A program made the position numbers and the translations under genes. A stretch of 64,000 bases of DNA, from contig JASMTS010000014.1 of NCBI GenBank assembly GCA_041694155.1, positions 20,583-84,582 of the forward strand, given 5' to 3'. This DNA comes from Candidatus Altimarinota bacterium (GTDB lineage Bacteria; Patescibacteriota; Gracilibacteria; BD1-5; UBA6164). Below are positions 31,049-45,670 of the stretch, in pieces (position 1 is the stretch's first letter; each line of letters opens with the position of its first letter). The notes under the pieces were generated by a model. It had not been told where the DNA came from, searched no databases, and saw nothing but the letters and a program-made list of their open reading frames with translations.

Positions 31049-32197
31049 ATGGCAAAAAATGATTTAGCTCTGTTTGAAGAGTTGTTTGCTGCATCTCCTG
31101 AAATTAAATATCCTAAACAAGGAGAAGTTATTTCTGGTACTATAGTAAAAATAGAAAAGAAAAATATATTGGTAAATGTTAACAATCAATTTACTGGACT
31201 TGTTGTTTCAAAAGAAGTAGGTAACACTATTGATATAAATGAATTACAAGCTGGTCAAGCTATCGATGTTATGGTTTTGGGTGACTCTGTAGAAAGAGGT
31301 TTATTAATTCTTTCTCTTAAAAGAGCTAACCAAATCAAAAACTTATCAAATCTTACTAAATACAATGAAAACAGTGAAATTATTACTGTTAAACCAACTG
31401 AAGCTAATAAATGAGGTTTATTAGTAGATATTGATGGGTTAAAAGGTTTTATACCTGTTTCTCAATTAACTCCTATTCACTATCCAAGAGTAGAATGAGC
31501 TGATCCTGAAAAAATTCTTGCTCACTTAGACGGTCTTGTTGGTGAACCTTTCAAAGTAAGAGTTATAAATGTAGACGAAGCTGGTAAAAAAATTATATTC
31601 TCAGAAAAAGCTGCTATTGAAGAAAATAGAGAAAAAGCATTAAGCACTTTAAAAGAAGGTGATGTAGTTGAAGGTACTGTTTCAGGTATATTATCATATG
31701 GTTTATTCGTTACTTTTGATTGATTAGAAGGTTTAGTTCACGTTTCTGAAATAGATTGGGGGCATGTTACAGATCCTTCAAAATTTGCTAAAGTATGAAT
31801 GAAAGTAAAAGTAAAAGTTATAGGACTTGATAGCGAAAAAATTTCACTATCTATAAAGAGATTAAAAGAAAACCCTTGGGATACTCTTGCAAAAAAATAC
31901 AAATTGAATGACTCTATTACTGCTCCAATTTCAAGAATTTCAAAATTTGGTGCGTTTATGGATTTAGAAGGTGGTATACAAGGTCTTATTCACTTATCTG
32001 AAATATCTCACGGTGTTGTTAAAGATATAAGAGATCATGTAAAAGTAGGTGAAGAAGTTACTGCTAAAATAATCAATTTTGAACCAGAAAAGAAAAGAAT
32101 TGGTTTATCTTTAAAAGCTTTACAAGAAGCTCCTAAAGAAACAGAAGCAAAAGAAGAAACTAAAAAAGAAGAAAAAGAAGAAGAATCTTCTAAATAA
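31049..32197 (+). CDS. rpsA: 30S ribosomal protein S1 (short form, four S1 domains)
   Basis: Track ORFs 31049-31414 and 31799-32197 are one frame joined through TGAs (382 aa). Repeated S1 motifs are present (G.V..I...G..V, GLVHVSEI, GLIHLSEIS). Confidence 0.85.
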
Positions 32198-32218
32198 TTT
32201 TTAAAATTTAAAATAAAT

Positions 32219-32254
32219 AATAACTCTGGGAAGTTATAAAAACACAGAGTTATT
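32219..32254 (+). other. hairpin between rpsA and rpsB (terminator/attenuator or rpsB leader structure)
   Basis: AATAACTCTG / CAGAGTTATT 10-bp stem with a 16-nt loop and no clear T tract. Confidence 0.3.
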
Positions 32255-32320
32255 ATATTAAGGCTATCCTGTCTATATTTAGATATGCCTGCTTTATATA
32301 ATAATAAACTTAAGGAAAAT

Positions 32321-33121
32321 ATGAATAAAACAGTATTAAATAAAATGTTTGATAATTTATTACATATAGGTAATAAATCTAACTATTGGAATCCAAAAAT
32401 GAAATCTTATATATATGGATCAGTTAATGGTATCCATGTTATAGATTTAACTAAAACTGCTGAAAAATTAGAAGAAGTTAAATCAGAAATAAAAGAATTA
32501 CACGAATCAGGTAAAAAAATATTATTTGTTGCTACAAAGTTACAAGCAAGAGATTCTATAAGTAAATTAGCTAGTGATTCAGGTCACTACTATGTTGCCG
32601 AAAAATGGGTTCCTGGTTTGTTAACAAACTTCAAAACTATTAAAAAAAGAATTTCTACATATATCAAATTATCAAAAGATTTAGAAAATGGAGCTTTTGA
32701 TATGTTAACTAAAAAAGAAAAAGCAGCAAAAATGCTAGAACATGAAAAATTAGAAAAAGCATATGCTTGAGTAAAAGACATGAAAAAATTACCAGATGTT
32801 GTTTTTGTTGTTGATGGTGTATATGAAGATCAAGCTGTTAGAGAAGCTAACTCTCTAAATATCAAATCATTTGCTATACTTAATACAAATGGTGATGATA
32901 CTTTAGTAGATAATTGTATACCTTCTAACACAAATGCAGTTAAATCAATAGAATTTTTAGCTAATGAATTAGCTGGTTCTCTAAAAGGTACTGCAAAAAA
33001 AACTAATACTGCTAGAGTTAAAAAAGTAGATGATAAAAAAGTTAGTGGTGAGAAAAAAACTACTAGAAAACCTGCTGTAAAAAAAGCTCCAGCTAAAAAA
33101 GAAGAATCACAAGAAAAATAA
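32321..33121 (+). CDS. rpsB: 30S ribosomal protein S2
   Basis: 266 aa. Start taken at ATG 32321, preceded by AAGGA. LLHIGNKSNYWNPKM, GIHVIDL, ILFVATK and VFVVD...AVREA are typical of S2. The Lys-rich tail continues through a TGA into track ORF 32780-33121. Confidence 0.9.
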
Positions 33122-33184
33122 TATTGCAATTTTAGAGGAATAATTATTATATAGTTATTCCTTATTCTTTAAAGAAATAAAAAT

Positions 33185-33511
33185 ATGAATAATAGTGAAA
33201 GCCATAATGAAAGAGTAAAAAATGCTCTTTGTTACATACCTATCGTAGCTTTTGTTTTATTTTTTATAGAAGAAAATAAAACACCAGACTTAGATAGAAA
33301 TATCAAATACGGTATGATATTTTTCTGAGTGTATTTTATACTTACTCTTATAATATCATGGTTGTTTACTGGTTTATTATTTTTGATTTACATTTGAATT
33401 AGTATATATTTTGGTTACAAAGCATATAATGGTGAAGATGTAAAAGTAGAATTTATTGATAATTTATTAGAAAAAAATTCTAATAATTCAAATAAAGAAA
33501 AAAAAGACTAA
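33185..33511 (+). CDS. small membrane protein (two TM helices), hypothetical
   Basis: 108 aa. ALCYIPIVAFVLFFIE and a second hydrophobic segment. Lies between rpsB and tsf. Confidence 0.45.
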
Positions 33512-33538
33512 TTTTATAATTTAATACTAATTAAAATT

Positions 33539-34324
33539 ATGGCAATTACAGCTGCTCAAATAAAAGAATTAAGAGAAATTACAGGTATCGGTATGATGGA
33601 ATGTAAAAAAGCTCTTACTGAAACAGATGGTGATATGGAAAAAGCTATTGAAGAATTAAGAAAAAAAGGTTTAGCAAAAGCTGCTAAAAAATCTGATAGA
33701 GATACTTTTGAAGGTGGTATTAAAATACTTACTGAAGGTAATAAAGCTTATGTTGTATCTGTTTCTTGTGAAACTGATTTCTTAGCTAATTCTGATAAAT
33801 TTAAAGCTATGTTAGAAAAAGTAGCTGAATTTTTAAAAGAAAATGGTGCTGATTCAAAAGAAGCTGCTCAAGAATTCATCAATTCTAACTATGCATTAGA
33901 AATGGGTGAGAACTTACAAATATCTAACTACAAAATAGTAGAAGGTGATGTTGTAGCTGAATATGTTCACTCTAATGGTAAATTAGCTGCATTGGTAGTT
34001 GCTAAAGATGGAACTGATCAAGAAAAAGTTAGACAAGTTGCTATGCATGTAACTGCAAGTAATCCTGAATACTTATCTCCAGAAGAAATTTCTGATGAAG
34101 CATTAGAAAAAGAAAAATCTATTCAATTAGAAATGATGAAAAATGATCCAAAAATGGAAGGTAAACCAGAAGATGTATTGTTAAAAATCATCGAAGGTAA
34201 AATGGGTAAATTCAAATCTGAAATCTCATTAACTGAACAACCTTTTGTTATAGATCCAAATACTAAAGTAAAAGATTTTATCTGAGAAGGTAACTTACAA
34301 GCTTTTTATAGATTTTCTATATAA
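33539..34324 (+). CDS. tsf: translation elongation factor Ts
   Basis: 261 aa. Contains ITAAQIKELREITGIGMMECKKALTETDGDMEKAIEELRKKG (UBA-like N domain) and SCETDFLANSD. Extends one TGA past track ORF 33539-34285. Confidence 0.9.
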
Positions 34325-34363: not shown

Positions 34364-34438
34364 AGTCCCATAGTTAAACGGCTATAATTCAGGACTCCAA
34401 ATCCTGCGTTCTAGGTTCGATTCCTAGTGGGACTGCCA
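34364..34438 (+). tRNA. tRNA-Trp (anticodon CCA)
   Basis: Acceptor AGTCCCA/TGGGACT, anticodon stem CAGGA/TCCTG with loop CTCCAAA, T arm CTAGG-TTCGATT-CCTAG, discriminator G, encoded CCA. Confidence 0.9.
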
Positions 34439-34440
34439 TT
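34418..34440 (+). repeat. att-like direct repeat copy 1 (3' end of tRNA-Trp)
   Basis: CGATTCCTAGTGGGACTGCCATT, identical to 34593-34615. Confidence 0.85.
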
Positions 34441-34592
34441 TACAACAAAAAATACCCTAAGCGAAAGCGTGGGGTATTTTTAGTTGTAAAAGATAATTTG
34501 TACTAAGGAATCGAAAGGAGGGTATTTGCGAATGCAAATATTTAATTGCGATGAATAAGAGCAATTAAAACGGTGTCTGACCCGAAGGGCAA
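34441..34592 (+). other. GC-enriched structured spacer between the two tRNA 3'-end copies
   Basis: Long hairpin TTACAAC-AAAAAATACCC...GAAA tetraloop...GGGGTATTTTT-GTTGTAA. Three short hairpins follow (TATTTGC/GCAAATA, TTAATTGC/GCAATTAA, CCC-GAA-GGG), enclosed by GGAATCG/CGATTCC. No ORF. Confidence 0.3.
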
Positions 34593-34615
34593 CGATTCCT
34601 AGTGGGACTGCCATT
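34593..34615 (+). repeat. att-like direct repeat copy 2
   Basis: Exact 23-nt copy of the tRNA-Trp 3' end with no 5' tRNA half upstream. Confidence 0.85.
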
Positions 34616-34697: not shown

Positions 34698-36488
34698 TTA
34701 ATCTAATTGTTCTTTTATTTTTTCATATATTTTATACATAGCTAAACTATCTTGCCCACAATATAGGAGTAAATTCTTAATTTGCTCTTCCTTTTGTTTT
34801 CATGTAATTTTTCATTCAAATATTTTATTTAATGTATTCATAGCAACAAGTCAATTTTTCACTCACATTCAATCATAACTCATTTCAGGCACCATAGCTG
34901 GTAAAACATATTTAATAGAATTAGCCCCTTTAAAATTTAATGAATAATAATATCATTTTGAGAATATATCCATTAAATCATAGGTGTTTTCATTAATCAT
35001 CTCAAATTTATCTCTCAAATTTTCAAATGTTTCAGCTATTTTTTTATTTCTTGTATTTTCAAAAGCTTTATACCAAACTATAAAAGTTTTATCAAAATCT
35101 TCTCAAATATCAGCTACAAATTCATCTAATAAATCTTTATAAGATCATGTTATAACCTTTTCACTTTCAAAATCTACTTTATTGCTATTATTTTCGATTT
35201 TAAGATGTTCTACATTTTTTTCTCAATCTCATACTAAAACTCATCAAAAGTGTTTTATATCTCAATTTTCATACACTTTATGAAGACTATATTGAACTAC
35301 TACTTGTTGATATGGCGAAGTATTATCTAAAAAAGGAATTGGGACACAAAGAGTTTCATAATCATAAAAACAAATCGGATATTTTATATCATCAAATTCA
35401 TTTATAATTGATTGAATATCAATTAGGTCTTTTCATTCTTTTTTTGCTTGTAAATAATTTATTATATATTGTCTTGCTTTTCAAATCACATTTCAAGCAT
35501 TATTAAATTTTTCATGTTCTTCAATACTCAAGTCATCTAATTTAGTTTTTCATTCATAATGTAATTCTTTGACTGCTTTGGGGGAACTTAATCATTTTCA
35601 ATAAATAGTTCAAAACTCTCTTTCTTCTCAAAAATATTCTAAATACTTACTTCATGAAAAATTATGTATTTTATTAAACTCTTCTTCATTCAAAATTAAT
35701 TCATTTCTTATTTGTTTTATAGTTTCTTTTATAACAAGAGAAGTTAATAAAAAATCTTTCCTAATAAATTCTTTGTCTGATTCTTCTCAAATTAATAAAA
35801 CTTTTGATTCTATATCTACTTGATCTAAAATAACTATTTTATATAAATCTATTTCTCAATTTTTTTTATAATTTCAATTCAGATAAGCATAATAAAAATT
35901 TTCTATTTCTCATAGTCAATTTTGAGCTAAAACTTTGTTTATGACATACTTTTGAAATGAAATATCTGATAAAAACTTATTTTCTAATTCTCATGAATTT
36001 TTATTTTTCACTTTTTGGTGAGCTTTTTCTTTTCTAACATGAGTTTTAGCTTTTACTTCTATTAAATCATAGTTTCAATTTCCATTTAGTTTTAAGTAAT
36101 CTCATCTTACAAAAAGATTATCTATTAAAAATCAAGGTTGGTAAATTAAAGCTTCTTTATTTTTAATAGCTTCTATTGTTCTTTTTAAATTATTATCTCT
36201 TTTTGTTTTATAATCATCAGCTATTAAAGTCATATCTTCATCTTCTTCATCAAGAGGATTTTTAGCTGTATTATCTTCAAAAACATCAAGTTTTTCAAAT
36301 CAATATTTTTTCAGAAAATAATCTCAAACTAAATCTTCAACTTTTTGTCAAAGCTCTATCAATTGTTCTCATTGTTCTTCATCTTCTAGTCCTCTTATTT
36401 TTTTATATACAGGCATATTATTTTGTTTCCACCAAGCAAGTTTTGGAAATTCTTTATAATCTACAAATAATGATTTTGTTATTAGCAT
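34698..36488 (-). CDS. DUF2779 domain protein (N-terminal RecB/Cas4-like PD-(D/E)xK region, C-terminal DnaQ-like region)
   Basis: 596 aa. GDYLKLNGNGNYDLIEVKAKT (D..ExK). Further on, ICFYDYETLCVPIPFLDNTSPYQQVVVQYSLH and C-terminal LLLYCGQDSLAMYKIY match the DUF2779 pattern. Confidence 0.65.
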
Positions 36489-36610
36489 AGTTTATAATAA
36501 AAAAAATATTAACATCACTATACACAAAATATATACAAAGTAAATTTTTATTTGGACTTTTAGTAGAAAATAAATATATTGGTATGTAAATATTTCCAAT
36601 TAAAAATTAT

Positions 36611-39600
36611 ATGGCTCAATTATTTAAGAAGAATATAGTAAAAGAAAAATTAAATACTTTTGAAATACCTAATTTAGAAGAAAAAATAGAAGTATTAAAA
36701 AAATGGGAAAAACTTCATAGAGAGGGGACATTAATAAGCAAAAAAGAAGAAGAGCTTGAATGACCTTTTTGAAGTGACTTTTTTGGTAAAATATTAGACT
36801 ATCATAGTTTTTGAGAAAATGAAATTTATAATAGGAAGTTTCAACCAAAAGTTCCAGAATGATGACAAAAAGCAGATATATGACTTTGATTTTTCTGAGA
36901 AAATATTGATATAATGAAAGTTGTAGTTGAATTAAAAGATGCTAAAACTTCACTTGATAAACCTCAACAAAGAGCCTGAAATCTTACACCTGTTCAACAA
37001 GCTTTTAAGTATAAGCCATATTTTAAAGATTGTGACTTTATTATTGTTTCAAATTTTAATGAAACAAGATTGTATATAGATAGTTATTATGACTACGAAG
37101 CTTGGACTTTATCAGATTTAATTAATCCATTTGATAATTATTTTAATTTTAGAAGATTTTATTATCTATTAAATAAACAAAATCTAATCATTAAAAAGTG
37201 AGAAAGTAATACAAAATCTTTGCTTTCTTATATAAGAATTCAAGAAAAAGAAATCACAAAACAATTCTATAAAGAATATACATTTTTAAGAAAAGAGCTT
37301 TTTAAAGATATAGTAACTAATAATCCTTGATTTAAAAAGACTGAACTTGATTTTTTATTAAATAAAACTCAAAAAATAATTGATAGAATTATTTTTATAC
37401 ATTTTTGTGAAGATTTATGACTTTTGCCACAAGATAAATTAAAAGAAGTTATTGAATATGGTGAAAAATCACTTGCCACTACTTGGGAAACATTATCTAA
37501 CTTTTTTAGAGCTGTTGATAAAGGTAGTGAAAAATTAGAAATTCCAGACTGATATAATTGAGGTCTTTTCCATGAAGATACAGAATTAAATAATCTAAAA
37601 GTTTGAGATAAAATCTGTAAGAAATTTATAGATATGTGAGAATATAACTTTGCTGATGATTTATCGGTAAATATTTTAGGTCATATTTTTGAACAATCTA
37701 TAAGTGATATAGAAGAATTAAAAGACAAAATCAATAAACAAGAAGATGCTACTTTATCAAAAAGAAAGAAAGATTGAGTTTTTTATACTCCTGAATATAT
37801 AGTTGATTATATAGTTAAAAATAGTGTTGGTAAAAAAATTGATGAATGGGAAGACGAATTGAAGCAAAAGCATAATCTAAAAGAAAATATTACAGACAAA
37901 AACTATAATAAAAGAGCTATTTTAGTATATGAAGAACTACAAAACAAAGTTCATAATATCAAAGTATTAGATCCTGCTTGTTGAAGTGGGGCTTTTCTGG
38001 TTAAAGTTTTTGATTTTTTACTTGATAAAAATAAGGAAATATCAAAAAAACTTGAAGATTTGTGAGTTAATCAAGGTTTATTTTCAAGTGAAAGTTATTT
38101 TAGAACAATACTTAAAAATAATATTTATTGAGTTGATTTAAATGAAGAAAGTGTTGAGATAACTAAACTATCTCTTTGGTTAAAAACAGCCCAAAAAGGT
38201 AAAAAATTGGCTAATCTTGATAGTAATATTAAGTGTGGTAATTCTCTTATTGATGATAAAGAAATTGCATGAGAAAAAGCTTTTTTTTGGGAAACTGAAT
38301 TCAAAGAAATTTTTGATAATGGTTGATTTGATGTAGTTGTAGGTAATCCTCCTTATGTTTCTACAAAACAAATTAATAAAATTGATAGAGATTTCTTTTG
38401 GAACACATATTGAGATATACTAATTTGAGAAATGGACTTATATCAAATTTTTATTTATATTTCATTAAATAAATTATTAAATAAATCATGAAATTTAGGT
38501 TTTATAACACCTAATTCTTATTATACTAATAAAAGTTTTAGTAAGTTTAGAGATTATATATTTAAAAATACCTCAATTTATCAAATTATAGATTTTCCAT
38601 ATAGATTTTTCCCATTTGATGAAGTTAATACTGAAACATCTATAATAACATTAAAGAATAGTTATAATTATAATAATTTTATTAATTTAGGAAAAATTGA
38701 TAAAGAAAAAATAAATTATTCAAGTAATTTAGATTTATCTACATATTTTAATAATTCATTTAAGCAAAATGATTTTTTCTCTATATATAAAGAAAAAATA
38801 GTAATTGATGCAAATAGTATTCTTGAAAAGTTAATTAATATAAAAGATGTTTTTTGAGGTCATTTAGACTTACATAAATGATGGATGAGTATTCCTAATT
38901 CAACTGAAATTTCATGAGAAAAATATGATAAATGAACTTTTTCTTATGAAGAAATTAATAATTCAGAAATATTAAAAAATAATACTATAAAATATTTAGA
39001 ATGAAGAGATATACATAGGTATTATATAGATAATACTTCTAAGTATGTAAATATATCAAATATTGATGAAAAAACAAAAAAATGGCATATTAGTGAAAAA
39101 ATTGCATTACAAAGAATTGTATGACAAAATAAAAGTAAAATATTTGCAACTTATGTATGAAGTGAATATATAATTTTTCCTAATGCAAATTTAGTTAATA
39201 TAAAAGATAATAAAAATAATATATATTATTTTTTATGAATTTTAAATTCTAAGCTAATAAATTATTTTTATTGAAAATACTATTGAGAAAGTAATACAAA
39301 TATAACAAAAGATGCATTTGAATTAATACCATTTGCATGATTTAAAAATGAAGAAGAAATTATAAACAATGTAATATCAATAATTGATAAAAACAAAAAA
39401 CTTCAGAAAAAAGTTAATAAATTTATCAAAAGATTAAAGAGTAGTTTTGAAATAGAAAAATTATCTAAAAAATTAGAAGCTTTTTATGATTTAGAGTTTA
39501 GTGATTTTGTAAAAGAATTGAAGAAAAAGAAAGTAGAATTGAGCCTTAAAGACCAAGATGAATGGGAAGAATATTTTGATAGTTATAAAAAAGAAATTTT

Positions 39601-39706
39601 AGAATTGAAAAGTGAAATTGATAATTGTGATAAAGAAATTGATGAAATGGTTTTTGAGTTGTATGGATTGAGTAAAGAAGAAAGGGGAGTTGTTTTAAAT
39701 AGTTAG
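36611..39706 (+). CDS. type IIL/IIG restriction-modification enzyme (MmeI-like nuclease, N6-adenine methyltransferase and specificity domain in one polypeptide)
   Basis: 1031 aa. N-terminal ADIGLGFF...VVVELKDAK...IIVSNFNETRLY (D-ExK, MmeI-like). SAM motif VLDPACGSGAFL and catalytic VVGNPPYV (NPPY at 38345-38356). Long C-terminal target-recognition region. In frame with track ORF 39518-39706. Confidence 0.8.
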
Positions 39707-39724: not shown

Positions 39725-40018
39725 ATGGAGAAAGTAAAAGAAGATATTTTATTTCATGAATCATGACTTAATAAATGATTTTATACAAACTTTAATCAAT
39801 ATACTTCAAATATAAATAATTTCAGATGAAGTTTAATTGTTTTTTCTTGATGATTAATTACTTTTTTAATTTTTTTCACAAAAGATATACAAAATCAGTG
39901 AATATTAGAATTTTGTATTATTTTTTCTCTTATTATTGTTTTTAATTTATCTGTATTAATTTGAGTTGTTTTTCCTATACTTCATTTGAAAATTAACTTA
40001 TATAGAAATTATTTATAG
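39725..40018 (+). CDS. small membrane protein, hypothetical
   Basis: 97 aa with two predicted TM helices. Starts 19 nt after the R-M gene. Confidence 0.35.
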
Positions 40019-40057
40019 ATTGATTTTATTTCTATAGTAAAAAAATGTAAAATCAAA

Positions 40058-40252
40058 ATGAACTTTAATCCTGAAAAATTTAATAAAATTGATATAGATA
40101 AATATAAAAAAGAAACATTAAATTTTCAATATAAAAATAATAATTTACCTTGGTACTTTAATGCCTTTATTATATTAGAGAATACTTTTATTATTATATT
40201 TATAGTATTTCTAATAATACTTTTAATTAGTTTATCAATTTATTATATATAA
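40058..40252 (+). CDS. small membrane protein, hypothetical
   Basis: Track ORF of 64 aa with a C-terminal TM helix FIIIFIVFLIILLISLSIYYI. Confidence 0.35.
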   Translation: MNFNPEKFNKIDIDKYKKETLNFQYKNNNLPWYFNAFIILENTFIIIFIVFLIILLISLSIYYI

Positions 40253-40361
40253 ATATATTTTAATAATATCAATATTAAATCAACTCAATCCAAGGGAATA
40301 AGCTTTTTTATAAATATAATAAGCGATGTAATAGATAATTTATAATTCACAAAATCAGATT

Positions 40362-40790
40362 ATGTTTAATTTTTTTACAAGTAAAAAAGATAATGAAAAA
40401 CAAAAAATAGAATATTTTGAAAATGTTAAAAGTGCTTCTTTATTTTTGGATAAATCTATTTTAACTATATCAAGTGCTTTTCTATGATTTTTATTATCTC
40501 AGTTTGAAAATTTATATGAAATAAAATCACAATTGTTAAACATTATATATTTACATATATCAATTATATCAATTTGATTTACAATATTTTTTGTCTTAAT
40601 TTCATATATTTTAAGCATAAAGCAAGCGAAAATATGATATGATATTTTAGAAAAAAATATTCCTTATGATAAATGAATCATTACTTTTAACAATTATGAT
40701 TTATTTATCGACTTATTTAGAATAATTTATTTTGTTACTTTTATTATTCCTATAATTCTAACAGTTTTATTTTACATTAGTAATTTTTAA
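40362..40790 (+). CDS. membrane protein, hypothetical
   Basis: 142 aa with three hydrophobic segments. Codon-by-codon reading with TGA=Gly ends at TAA 40788-40790. Confidence 0.4.
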
Positions 40791-41756: not shown

Positions 41757-42422
41757 ATGATAGAAGAAAAAACATTTAGTGATATTAGAAGAAATTATAT
41801 ACTATCATCTGTGATATTTATTTTATTTCTTATTTATTGATGAAGAATAGAAATAAATAAAATTCTATTTTTTGATTTAAGTTGAGAATGGTATTATTTT
41901 TCTCCTTTTATAGATATATTTATATTGCTTTTAATTTTCTTTTTATATACATTTATTAGATATATAATTTATGCTAAATATGAAATTAAAGAGAAATGAT
42001 ATTATTTTAATAGACTATATAGATGAATAAAAAATACTAATATTGATGATTATTCTAAAAAAATATATATTAATGAAAATAAAAAAGAAATTATATTAAA
42101 TTGAATATCTATTAATAAACGGAGTGGTAAAAATGAATTAGAATTACAATTATCCTATAAAGATTGAAATATAAGTTGAACTAACATTAGTATAAAAAAA
42201 ATAAAACAATATTCTTTTAATAAAAATGAAATAACTTTTGAGTTCTTATGAAGTAAAGTTATTTTAAGAACAAAAGAATGAAAAAATAATTATTTTAAAA
42301 CAGACTATTCAAAGTTTGTCTTTGATTTGGATTATTCAAATTTTATTTGGCCATTATCATTAATTTTTATAATATATTTTATATTAATTGTTAAACTTAC
42401 ATACTTCCTATTTTATAACTAA
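41757..42422 (+). CDS. membrane protein, hypothetical
   Basis: 221 aa with N- and C-terminal TM helices flanking a soluble region of about 110 aa. Confidence 0.4.
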
Positions 42423-42556
42423 AAAGAAATCATTATTTAATAAACAATTTCTAATTAATTTGTGTATTTTATTAATAATTTAACTTTTCTTATATTGTAG
42501 CTAAAAAACTAACTGTATTTTTATTTAATACATTTAAAAGTTCTATGTTATTACCA

Positions 42557-42576
42557 GCAGTGCTGCCATTAAAAAA
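42557..42576 (+). repeat. degenerate third copy of the tRNA-Trp 3'-end att repeat
   Basis: CAGTGCTGCCATTAAAAAA compared with TAGTGGGACTGCCATTAAAAAA at 34599-34621. There is a 14-nt exact core CTGCCATTAAAAAA. Confidence 0.45.
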
Positions 42577-42609: not shown

Positions 42610-42975
42610 TTAGTCAGTCAGCTCTAGGTAAGCTTTGAATTGCTTTCTGAGGACTGTTAGTTTGAAGGGCTTATCAACTACTATAGTTCTAACTATAGCA
42701 GTAAAGCCTACTTCATCATTTTTTGTGTCTTCTGTCTGGCCTTTTATTATTTCAAATGAGCCAAACCTTACCAAAAATTCAGTTATAGAGTCAAAAAGAC
42801 TCCCACTAAAATACAAGCGAAGGAGAACTGGTTTTTCTCCTTTGTCTATATAGTTATGCTTACTCTTTTTTTCTACTCTTTTTTTGAAGTTTTGGTAAAT
42901 CTTTTCTTTTTCTTCCTGGCTTAGTTCTTTTTTTGTACATAGCTGAGGAAGAGCCATATGAAGATGTTTTTTCAT
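42610..42975 (-). CDS. hypothetical protein, compositionally foreign
   Basis: Track ORF of 121 aa. No TGA codon (Gly codons are GGA, GGG and GGC x3). Uses C/G-ending codons that are rare elsewhere in the window. AGGAG lies 7 nt upstream of the ATG. Confidence 0.5.
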   Translation of the reverse strand: MKKHLHMALPQLCTKKELSQEEKEKIYQNFKKRVEKKSKHNYIDKGEKPVLLRLYFSGSLFDSITEFLVRFGSFEIIKGQTEDTKNDEVGFTAIVRTIVVDKPFKLTVLRKQFKAYLELTD

Positions 42976-43106
42976 TTTTTTACTCCTTTTTTGTCAAAAA
43001 ATGTTCTTACATAATAAAATAAAAATTATTTTAGTCAATTTTAGTTTGCATATAATCATTTTTTATCTAATATAATAAAAAGAAATATTATATTTTTAAT
43101 CATCAT

Positions 43107-43886: not shown

Positions 43887-43922
43887 AAAAATAACATAAG
43901 TTAAATCTTATGTTATTTTTTT
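43885..43922. terminator. bidirectional hairpin terminator
   Basis: AAAAAATAACATAAG / CTTATGTTATTTTTT stem. Confidence 0.6.
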
Positions 43923-45670
43923 GTATAGCATTTTTTTTCAGATTTTTTCAGATTTTTTGTTATTTGCTTTGTATTTTATTAATGGTTTTAGATCAATATC
44001 TTTTTTATCATATTTTTTATCTAGCATTTGTATAACATCTTGAAGTTTTTCAAATACTTTGTCTTTTCATATATTTTCTATAAATCACACACTATGCAAT
44101 TTATTTACAACTTTTACTCTAAGATTTGTATAGTATACTTTTATTCATTGTTTTCTAAGCTTGTAATCAAGATCTCTTAGTACTACATAACTAGATGAAT
44201 CAATATTTCACATCCACTCAAAATCAAAAATCACTATTTTTAAATCTGGCTTTTCTGATATGTAATCAAGTACTTTGTTTTCAAAATGTCATACATTTGC
44301 AAAAAATAAGTTACCATCTACTCTAAAAACAGAAATATATTTTGATTTTTTTATCTTGAAAAAATTCGCATCTCTAAATACTCAATTTTTGTACATTGAT
44401 ATTTCTATTACTTTTGGTTTCATTGACCTGTATATATGAAAAGCTAGGGATAATATTACTCAAGTAGCTATTCATACTTCTACATTTGGGCTACTTATCA
44501 TTGTAATTATAAAAGTTATTATAGCTACATAGGCATCTTTTTTTTGTACTTTCCATGCTTCTACTATAGGTTCTATTTTTATGAGGTCAGCTACAGCTAT
44601 TATAATAATAGCAGCTAATGTTGCTATCGGTAAGTGGTATAATAGGGAGTAAGATATATAAGAGTTATTGCTACTATTATTCATGTAACTATAGATGACA
44701 TAGATGACTTGGCTCATGCTCTAAGGTTTACTGCTGTTCTAGAAAAACTTCATGCTACTCAATATCAACCAAATAATGATGATCATATATTTGCCGTTGC
44801 TTGTCATAATAATTCTTTATTAGCTGATACCTTTTGTTTTGTTCTTATTGCTACTCATTTAGCTACAGCAATAGATTCTGTGAATCATATTAGTCATATT
44901 ATAAAAGAAAAAATTATTATTTTATAAGTGTGTTCTCAAAATAATATTTCTTTTGAAAAGCTCAAGTCTAATGATGGTAATCAGCTTGGTATAACTCATA
45001 CAACACTTCATCAATATTGAGACTCAAATCATATATTATATGATATAATAATCGATATTACCAATAATATAAGTACTCTTGGTAATTTTTGTAAGTATTT
45101 TTTTAATAATATTAAAATTATTATTCATACAAATCAAAACAAAAATGTTATCAAGTGCATCTCATCAAGTGACTTTACTATTATTTGCCATATTTGTTCA
45201 AAAATACTTATTCATTTTGATATTGAAAATCAAAATATTTTTTCTGCTTGTGATATTATTGTTATAAGTGCTATAGCATTTGTAAAACCTACTATTACAG
45301 GGTGTGATAAAAATTCTACTATTATTCAGAGTCTAAAAATTGATAATAAAAGATATGTTATTCACATAAAAAATGCCATCATCGAAGCATAAATTATGTA
45401 TTCTTGGGTACTTTGAAGTCATAGTGTTCATAAAGTTGCAGCAGTCATTATTGATACTATTGTTACCGGTCATGTAGACATTTGCTTGCTAGATCATATT
45501 AGTCATCATATTATAACTCATATAAAAGCAGTATAAAGTCATACATATATAGGCAATCATGCTAATCAAGCATATGCCATAGATTGAGGTATCATAACTA
45601 GAGCTACAGTTATCCCAGCTAGTAGATCAGCTCTAAAGAATGTTTTTATTTTGTTTTTTAATTTTGTCAT
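43908..45670 (-). pseudogene. SulP-family anion transporter with C-terminal STAS domain, interrupted by a frameshift near 44640-44650
   Basis: The N-terminal frame (start 45670; LLAGITVALVMIPQSMAYA ... RTAVNLRAGAKSS ... LTP) stops at TAG 44624-44626. The rest (HLPIATLAAIIIIAVADLI ... STAS domain) is in another frame, which is the frame of track ORF 44472-44717. The total span is not a multiple of 3. Confidence 0.65.

Follow-up and report, generated by a model that had tools for sequence, protein, structure and literature searches.

A DUF2779 dual-nuclease gene divergent from a type IIG restriction-modification gene in a tRNA-Trp-linked island, and the recurrent linkage of DUF2779 to restriction-modification genes

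Cas4-like nucleases have been described before at restriction-modification (R-M) loci. Hudaiberdiev et al. 2017 (PMC5704561) reported UvrD-Cas4 fusions beside type III Mod/Res genes and solo-Cas4 genes beside R-M genes in DPANN archaea, and a defence role was predicted for them. An earlier classification assigned the family DUF2779 (PF11074) to the 3'-5' exonuclease clade of RNase H-like proteins (family F.17) and noted its PD-(D/E)XK (DUF83-like) domain (PMC3985635). Its member in JCVI-syn3.0, MMSYN1_0389, was described in 2026 as a quasi-essential fusion of a Cas4-like domain and a DEDD(y) nuclease (PMC13621843), and a transposon insertion in the DUF2779 gene of M. bovis is listed among the mutants of a cell-culture screen (PMC7373297). 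Here we describe a DUF2779 gene and a single-chain type IIG R-M gene lying head to head in a 64,000-nucleotide (nt) stretch of DNA from a Candidatus Altimarinota bacterium, which we refer to as the window (G000:C14:20583-84582; the genome, G000, has 1.06 Mb on 16 contigs). Our favoured reading, held with moderate confidence, is that the region 34.6-42.6 kb of the window is a tRNA-Trp-linked defence island, in which a self-contained type IIG R-M enzyme is joined by a DUF2779 protein that is accessory to DNA-cutting immunity and degrades the cut ends.

Like the Cas4-like nucleases of PMC5704561, DUF2779 genes recur beside R-M genes, notably Mod-Res, in small-genome organisms; they differ in belonging to PF11074 and not to PF12705 or PF01930, in being joined to a DEDDy exonuclease instead of a helicase, and in having no iron-sulphur (Fe-S) cluster. 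The window protein has the same two-domain build as MMSYN1_0389 and the PF11074 family, with the D, ExK and DEDD-Y residues likewise conserved, but its gene is an island-borne accessory beside R-M and not a quasi-essential chromosomal gene, and its subfamily is longer by about 110 residues at the N-terminus and lacks cysteines in the nuclease domain. From Cas4 proper it differs in lacking the four-cysteine Fe-S cluster and in not being encoded near cas genes. An earlier note on this DNA stated that DUF2779 proteins have no assigned function, which is correct; the fusion of a Cas4-like and a DEDD domain is however already found in PMC3985635 and PMC13621843. The fold is thus already published, and the new part is the recurrent, strong linkage to R-M genes, which extends the known Cas4-R-M theme. 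In the literature searched we did not find recurrent placement of DUF2779 beside R-M or other DNA-cutting defence genes.

Both open reading frames (ORFs) are complete only if TGA is read as glycine (table 25). They then lie exactly at the coordinates the earlier note had given them, with 35 in-frame TGA codons in the DUF2779 ORF of 596 amino acids (aa) and 36 in the R-M ORF of 1031 aa; under table 11 no ORF of at least 80 aa is found within 34.4-42.6 kb. Genome-wide, TGA makes up 75% of the glycine codons in G000, with a median of 81% per gene. It should be noted that homologue identities from databases translated with TGA as tryptophan fall up to 6 points below the true identity, and that P0003 and P0123 are the window's own two proteins in such a translation. 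The genes had been described as back to back with about 120 nt between them; the spacing holds, at 122 nt, while the orientation is strictly head to head (divergent). Within this intergenic region a weak promoter candidate, TTGGAC and TATATT with a 17-nt spacer, is oriented toward the R-M gene, and AAAAGTCCAA is kept in the related locus L004. A promoter and terminator scan of the locus was uninformative in DNA of 22% GC, giving 54 sites where 49 were expected from shuffles. A shared operator was rejected after alignment of the three divergent intergenic regions, which showed no clear candidate; the short AAAAGTCCAA alone was conserved, in two of the three, and to judge from this alignment AAAAGTCCAA is probably a -35 element.

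The DUF2779 protein (P0001) matches PF11074 with 97.4 bits against a cut-off of 23.3, at residues 373-524 and over the full model (1-126). NCBIfam UU173 (NF045869) gives 79.2 bits where the cut-off is 225, and a sequence search of solved structures returned no match. The AlphaFold 2 (AF2) model has a pLDDT (predicted local distance difference test) of 91, and Foldseek finds family-B polymerase proofreading exonuclease domains as matches for its C-terminal half, and Cas4 SSO0001, human EXO5 and AdnAB for its N-terminal half. Throughout 35 homologues the PD-(D/E)XK residues D130, E144, K146 and Q179 are invariant, as are the DEDDy residues D376, E378, D504, Y576 and D580. The motifs pointed out earlier were all recovered: NYDLIEVKAKT at residues 139-149, FYDYET at 374-379, QYSLH at 399-403 and YCGQDSLAMY at 576-585. 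Pfam, the invariant residues and AF2/Foldseek agree on the two-domain reading already proposed, and the protein is predicted to be a Cas4-like PD-(D/E)XK domain fused to a DEDDy 3'-5' exonuclease domain. Residues 1-372 contain no cysteine, and the nuclease domain is therefore without the Fe-S cluster of Cas4, EXO5 and AddB. Larger fusions were also seen: in L072 (8001-10520), with ResIII and KilA-N genes adjoining, one continuous ORF of 839 aa contains both a nucleotidyltransferase toxin domain of the AbiEii type (PF08843) and a DUF2779 part that is 66% identical to the window protein, and P0019 is a second AbiEii-DUF2779 fusion.

For the R-M enzyme (P0002), Pfam reports Eco57I (PF07669, E 5.6e-45), MmeI_Mtase (3.4e-19, 69.5 bits), N6_Mtase (2.5e-16) and, at residues 794-899, TaqI_C (PF12950, 1.9e-14) as the target-recognition domain; PADLOC assigns residues 41-812 to REase_MTase_IIG (PDLC03609, E 7e-113), far above PglX and DrmMI. 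Aligned with 34 homologues (43-66% identity), the enzyme shows an invariant nuclease triad of D89, E107 and K109, and methylase motif I DPACGSGAF (454-462) and motif IV NPPY (579-582) do not vary either. The earlier motifs VVVELKDAK, IIVSNFNETRLY, VLDPACGSGAFL and NPPY are all present, the last at nt 38345-38356. The domain order is an N-terminal PD-(D/E)XK domain, a helical spacer, a gamma-class N6-adenine methyltransferase, TaqI_C and a C-terminal coiled tail, so that Pfam, PADLOC, the alignment and AF2 bear out the reading as nuclease, methylase and target-recognition region in one chain. A profile search of solved structures gave CamA, BseCI, PglX/BrxX, TaqI, BpuSI, MmeI (3.8e-10) and DrdV, all of them matching through the methylase and target-recognition half. 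The AF2 model (pLDDT 85) has its best local superposition on CamA; over the full length it reaches a template modelling (TM) score by query of 0.52 on PglX/BrxX (about 1000 columns) and by target of 0.63 on MmeI 5hr4, and it also superposes on BpuSI and DrdV.

The description of this enzyme as MmeI-like holds for the architecture, with the same domain order as MmeI 5hr4, DrdV 7lo5 and BpuSI 3s1s and likewise a solitary gene, but not for the sequence. MmeI_N and MmeI_hel (PF20464, PF20465) score 17.1 and 20.7 bits, under the Pfam cut-off of 27, and the best families are Eco57I and TaqI_C; homologues at 43-52% identity do have PF20464 and PF20465. The match to MmeI is confined to the methylase and target-recognition part, and this half is closer to CamA and BseCI than to MmeI. 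BREX PglX/BrxX (8c45, 9ewz) gives the best full-length superposition and has the Eco57I-type methylase core in common with the window enzyme. An identity as PglX was nevertheless rejected: NF033452 reaches 150.7 bits, far under its cut-off of 500, the neighbours include no brx genes and the N-terminal D...ExK triad is conserved. We suggest an enzyme of MmeI/PglX-type architecture that is not a close relative of MmeI, and one that looks like an ordinary, intact type IIG enzyme. No second methylase gene was found by family scans of the neighbours in 34.4-43.9 kb, which fits a self-contained, type IIL-like mode. Four further Eco57I-family matches lie in G000, at C3:49285, C11:9354, C13:4863 and C14:98835. 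Five such matches are a heavy R-M load for a 1.06-Mb genome, and DUF2779 adjoins just one of them. Some close relatives of the methylase half (P0151, P0180, P0181 and P0234; 57-74% identity over 55-59% of the query) also have a Y1 transposase domain (PF01797, RayT-like).

The linkage of DUF2779 to R-M genes was counted in 50 carrier genomes with solid PF11074 matches, within 10 kb and with the expectation taken from genome size. Of the Eco57I-family matches 12 of 57 lay this close to DUF2779, where 1.13 were expected (Poisson 3e-9), and of the N6_N4 methylase matches 25 of 83, where 1.65 were expected (Poisson 4e-21); these statistics assume uniform placement and ignore shared ancestry, and the positive genomes span many GTDB families. 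Either kind of methylase is within 10 kb of DUF2779 in 25 of the 50 carriers, many of the DUF2779 contigs being short. This enrichment had been set beforehand as the test on which the pairing could fail, and it came out positive. The pairing with type IIL/IIG enzymes as first proposed proved too narrow: R-M genes are indeed enriched, but the partners also include type III Mod-Res, GmrSD and the defence-like operons of plasmids.

The neighbourhoods themselves were taken from 56 loci fetched around matches, 10 obtained via exact homologue look-ups and the window, with genes clustered after greedy ORF calls made in this analysis. A recurrent R-M gene cluster is present in 32 of 62 DUF2779 loci, and in 12 of those at most two genes from DUF2779. 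The recurrent neighbours are P0002-like IIG enzymes (14 loci) and N6_N4 methylases including type III Mod with the EcoP15I C-terminal domain (21 loci), further type III Res (ResIII + RE_endonuc), GmrSD, OLD-type nucleases, GIY-YIG/DUF4357 and Bro-N, and also serine recombinases. In loci without the recurrent R-M clusters, C5 methylases, Mrr, MTES_1575, EcoEI_R_C, GmrSD and Fic are among the neighbours.

Several layouts recur. The divergent IIG/DUF2779 pair is found in the window, in L002 (= G243) and in L004, where the gene cut by the contig end is an IIG N-terminus (E 7e-281). In L008/L028, L009, L010, L011 and L012 an IIG gene, one to four variable genes and DUF2779 follow each other on one strand, the variable genes including Shedu SduA_C, OLD, NYN and KTSC. 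In L009 (3156-6299) the IIG gene is in two pieces, one of 298 aa with the nuclease and one of 716 aa with methylase and target recognition, which is either decay or a natural two-piece version. A tight Mod-Res-DUF2779(-GIY-YIG) operon is present in L030, L033 and L034, with gaps of 2, 44 and 2 nt in L034. Within this class and outside it, DUF2779 thus recurrently closes or adjoins DNA-cutting immune modules, of the type IIG, type III Mod-Res, GmrSD and OLD kinds. At the level of association the link to R-M is supported, and from it we infer a cooperating or second-line role.

The two genes of the pair also diverge together. Pairwise identities of DUF2779 and of the N-terminal half of the IIG enzyme are correlated (Mantel r 0.91, p 0.004) over the eight loci in which both occur, and these sequences suggest a pair that is old in the lineage and inherited together. 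Between IIG relatives the target-recognition half is 57-61% identical and the N-terminal half 74-75%, a faster divergence of target recognition that is expected where specificities change. The chromosomal site of the pair is beside tsf in the window and L004, at rplD-rplW-rplB in L012 and elsewhere in L002; these different sites mean that the pair has either travelled whole or come together more than once. The co-divergence is compatible with functional coupling and no proof of it.

Of the 301 genomes with which the class was sampled, 54 (18%) have a PF11074 match. In the family to which the window belongs, G000 and G243 carry DUF2779 and the 19 other genomes listed have no match. With this patchy distribution DUF2779 is an accessory gene, and a role as core gene around which islands gather was rejected on the same counts. 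It also occurs on 26 plasmids, 22 of them non-mobilizable; on those of Campylobacterota, Cyanobacteriota and Negativicutes it comes late or last in defence-like operons, its partners being OLD-type, PD-(D/E)XK, WYL, helicase, PLD and NERD genes.

These plasmids bear on the possibility that DUF2779 is a recombination or end-processing nuclease of mobile elements, serving replication, integration or anti-defence of islands, prophages or plasmids. In non-recoded relatives (L040, L042, L049, L057, L059 and L066), TerL, TerS-like helix-turn-helix, ParB-fused and plain N6_N4 methylase and serine recombinase genes stand beside DUF2779, in blocks that by their gene content look like prophages or phage-derived elements, and recombinases flank DUF2779 in L007 and L009. 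A tblastn search of DUF2779 against 50,697 phage genomes however gave no match, by which a phage origin was rejected; family scans of the neighbour proteins in the window revealed no integrase and no single-strand annealing protein, and most of the plasmids are non-mobilizable as given above. We hold a mobile-element role to be very unlikely.

Cas4-like and DEDD nucleases serve prespacer processing in CRISPR adaptation. As DUF2779 combines these nuclease types, it could be imagined as a stand-in for Cas4 plus DnaQ, which trims restriction fragments into prespacers for the CRISPR-Cas system of the genome, and Cas1 is indeed encoded in G000, on another contig (C6:31197-31976). Against this, DUF2779 carriers do not have Cas1 more often (5 of 50, leaving 45 without it) than non-carriers do (34 of 251), the Cas4 Fe-S cysteines are missing, and DUF2779 is distant from cas genes. 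The lack of co-occurrence with Cas1 largely removes the idea; a helper of CRISPR adaptation was rejected as a candidate and now seems to us highly improbable.

In E. coli it is RecBCD that has the clean-up role after restriction. For the window we propose a similar sequence of events. The IIG enzyme would cut unmethylated incoming DNA, DUF2779 would load onto the fresh DNA ends, and it would then degrade both strands, 5'-3' by the Cas4/EXO5-like domain and 3'-5' by the polymerase-B-type DEDDy domain, by which cleavage would become irreversible by ligation or recombination. DUF2779 has no sensor, helicase or specificity domain, which fits an enzyme relying on the cut of another, and we infer that it probably chews DNA ends made by partner nucleases. 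By analogy the proposed role would be the same as that of RecBCD/AddAB after restriction, exonucleolytic destruction of fragments from their ends, although DUF2779 lacks helicase and ATPase domains as well as control of the Chi type. More tentatively, and as a possibility we would still bet against, DUF2779 may be a finishing module of prokaryotic immunity that is portable and indifferent to its partner. It would then be a dual exonuclease without a helicase, recruited in cis by many unrelated DNA-cutting systems, among them type IIG and type III R-M, GmrSD and OLD-type nucleases, to remove both strands starting from their breaks.

A number of observations weigh against the reading of DUF2779 as accessory to R-M, besides the assumptions behind the enrichment statistics. 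The DUF2779 protein matches none of the PADLOC-DB v2 families at E <=0.01. RecBCD-type function is not obviously missing in G000, where a 1026-aa protein (C6:265606-268686) with a C-terminal PDDEXK_1 domain and a helicase part that is UvrD-type when read by eye is AddA-like. PDDEXK_1 matches occur in DUF2779 carriers and non-carriers alike; DUF2779 is therefore not simply filling a RecBCD gap, and replacement of a missing RecBCD/AddAB is not supported. In about half of the DUF2779 loci the fetched stretch shows no R-M gene, and defence genes cluster in islands anyway, so that proximity alone is no proof of cooperation. Housekeeping genes (UvrC, MgsA, ABC transporters) also appear among the neighbours in loci without R-M clusters. 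In some lineages the quasi-essentiality in JCVI-syn3.0 (PMC13621843) and the M. bovis screen mutant (PMC7373297) point to housekeeping DNA metabolism. Between the window and L004, which have the tsf-rpsB-rpsA neighbourhood in common, DUF2779 is 72% and IIG 75% identical and the housekeeping neighbours 62-89%; as the pair diverges like its neighbours, the co-divergence could be plain vertical descent.

The loci without R-M genes lead to the view that DUF2779 is an autonomous single-gene defence nuclease, its proximity to R-M resulting merely from accumulation in defence islands. Many unrelated systems adjoin it (IIG, type III, GmrSD, OLD, Shedu SduA_C, NERD/AAA and PLD), and the existence of an AbiEii-DUF2779 fusion is also in favour. 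Such independence is difficult to combine with the operons, in which DUF2779 often follows Res, methylase or DUF4357 genes after gaps of 2-44 nt and is typically the last nuclease gene, or with the co-divergence with the IIG partner. Moreover, an unregulated dual exonuclease without a sensing domain would have no obvious discrimination between self and non-self. We regard autonomy as unlikely, though worth keeping in mind.

The essentiality data, the UvrC and MgsA neighbours and the neighbour-like divergence from L004 would instead suit a repair or recombination nuclease of small-genome bacteria, situated at a tRNA hot spot and functionally unlinked to R-M. Carried by 18% of the class and by 2 of the 21 family genomes listed, DUF2779 is unlike a core repair gene, and it lies inside the att-like repeats of the island, moves with IIG to different chromosomal sites and occurs on plasmids. 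A repair role is in our opinion improbable, and we retain the reading of DUF2779 as an accessory to DNA-cutting immunity.

The location of the pair at the tRNA-proximal end of an island, as proposed in the earlier note, is borne out by both the tRNA-Trp repeats and a drop in GC content. The last 23 nt of tRNA-Trp (34418-34440) are repeated exactly 175 nt downstream, and GC is 0.17-0.24 between the tRNA-Trp repeats against 0.26-0.29 outside. The island, of about 8 kb and without an integrase, is inserted at the 3' end of tRNA-Trp, and the pair occupies its tRNA side; between the repeats the island holds the DUF2779 and IIG genes, two small orphans, an AbiJ/Abi_C-like gene and a 221-aa orphan (Table 1). 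The third, degenerate repeat is possibly the right border, judged on its similarity to the tRNA end; the evidence for this copy is weak because the matched stretch is partly A/T-rich.

Table 1. Features of the tRNA-Trp-linked island; positions are those of the window.
Feature	Position	Strand	Evidence
tRNA-Trp (CCA), left island border	34364..34438	+	ARAGORN
Exact 23-nt repeat of tRNA-Trp 3' end (copy of 34418-34440), att-like scar	34593..34615	+	Repeat search
DUF2779 dual nuclease, 596 aa: predicted Cas4-like PD-(D/E)XK + DEDDy 3'-5' exonuclease	34698..36488	-	Pfam, alignment, AF2/Foldseek
Divergent intergenic region common to both genes, 122 nt	36489..36610	.	
Single-chain type IIG R-M enzyme, 1031 aa	36611..39706	+	Pfam, PADLOC, alignment, AF2
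Two small lineage-specific ORFs (97, 142 aa), variable cargo, no family match	39725..40790	+	
AbiJ / Abi_C-like protein, 265 aa	40950..41747	+	Pfam Abi_C 1.2e-8; PADLOC AbiJ 2.1e-7
221-aa orphan ORF, no family match	41757..42422	+	
Degenerate third copy of tRNA-Trp 3' end, 78% over 27 nt, last 14 nt identical	42550..42576	+	Repeat search

The left flank is housekeeping, with tRNA-His, rpsA, rpsB, a small ORF, tsf and tRNA-Trp, and the right flank holds a 149-aa ORF, a CYTH protein, a split SulP gene, DbpA and MutS. The island genes use TGA for glycine as often as the rest of the genome, which means either a long residence of these genes or a donor that shares the code. In rpsA, rpsB and tsf (31049-34324) TGA is strongly avoided, at 6-13% of the glycine codons, and it is likewise avoided in a few long genes on contig C12; it appears that the recoded TGA is selected against where speed or accuracy of translation counts. 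An island to the left of tRNA-Trp was considered and rejected, as rpsA, rpsB and tsf are situated there; that these genes have few TGA codons is due to high expression and not to a foreign origin. The 152 nt between the tRNA-Trp 3' end and its exact repeat (34441-34592) are less AT-rich than the surroundings and show visible hairpins; they could be left over from an earlier insertion, or they could form a small RNA. A minus-strand ORF at the island's right edge (42610-43059) has a single TGA, no family match and a codon use unlike its neighbours. Further to the right the SulP/STAS sulfate permease is split in two overlapping ORFs on the minus strand (43908-44717 and 44624-45670); a frameshift, a sequencing error or a pseudogene may lie behind this.

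In practical terms, the IIG enzyme is one more natural type IIG specificity, from a lineage that reads TGA as glycine. The linkage to R-M genes gives PF11074, a widespread family, a concrete testable role. If the finishing-module idea is true, R-M systems would commonly be two-step machines that cut and then erase, and the finishing role would be weightiest in small-genome bacteria such as Patescibacteria and Mollicutes. If the accessory role proposed here for DUF2779 is true, a post-cleavage exonuclease layer would be added to the R-M biology of very small genomes.

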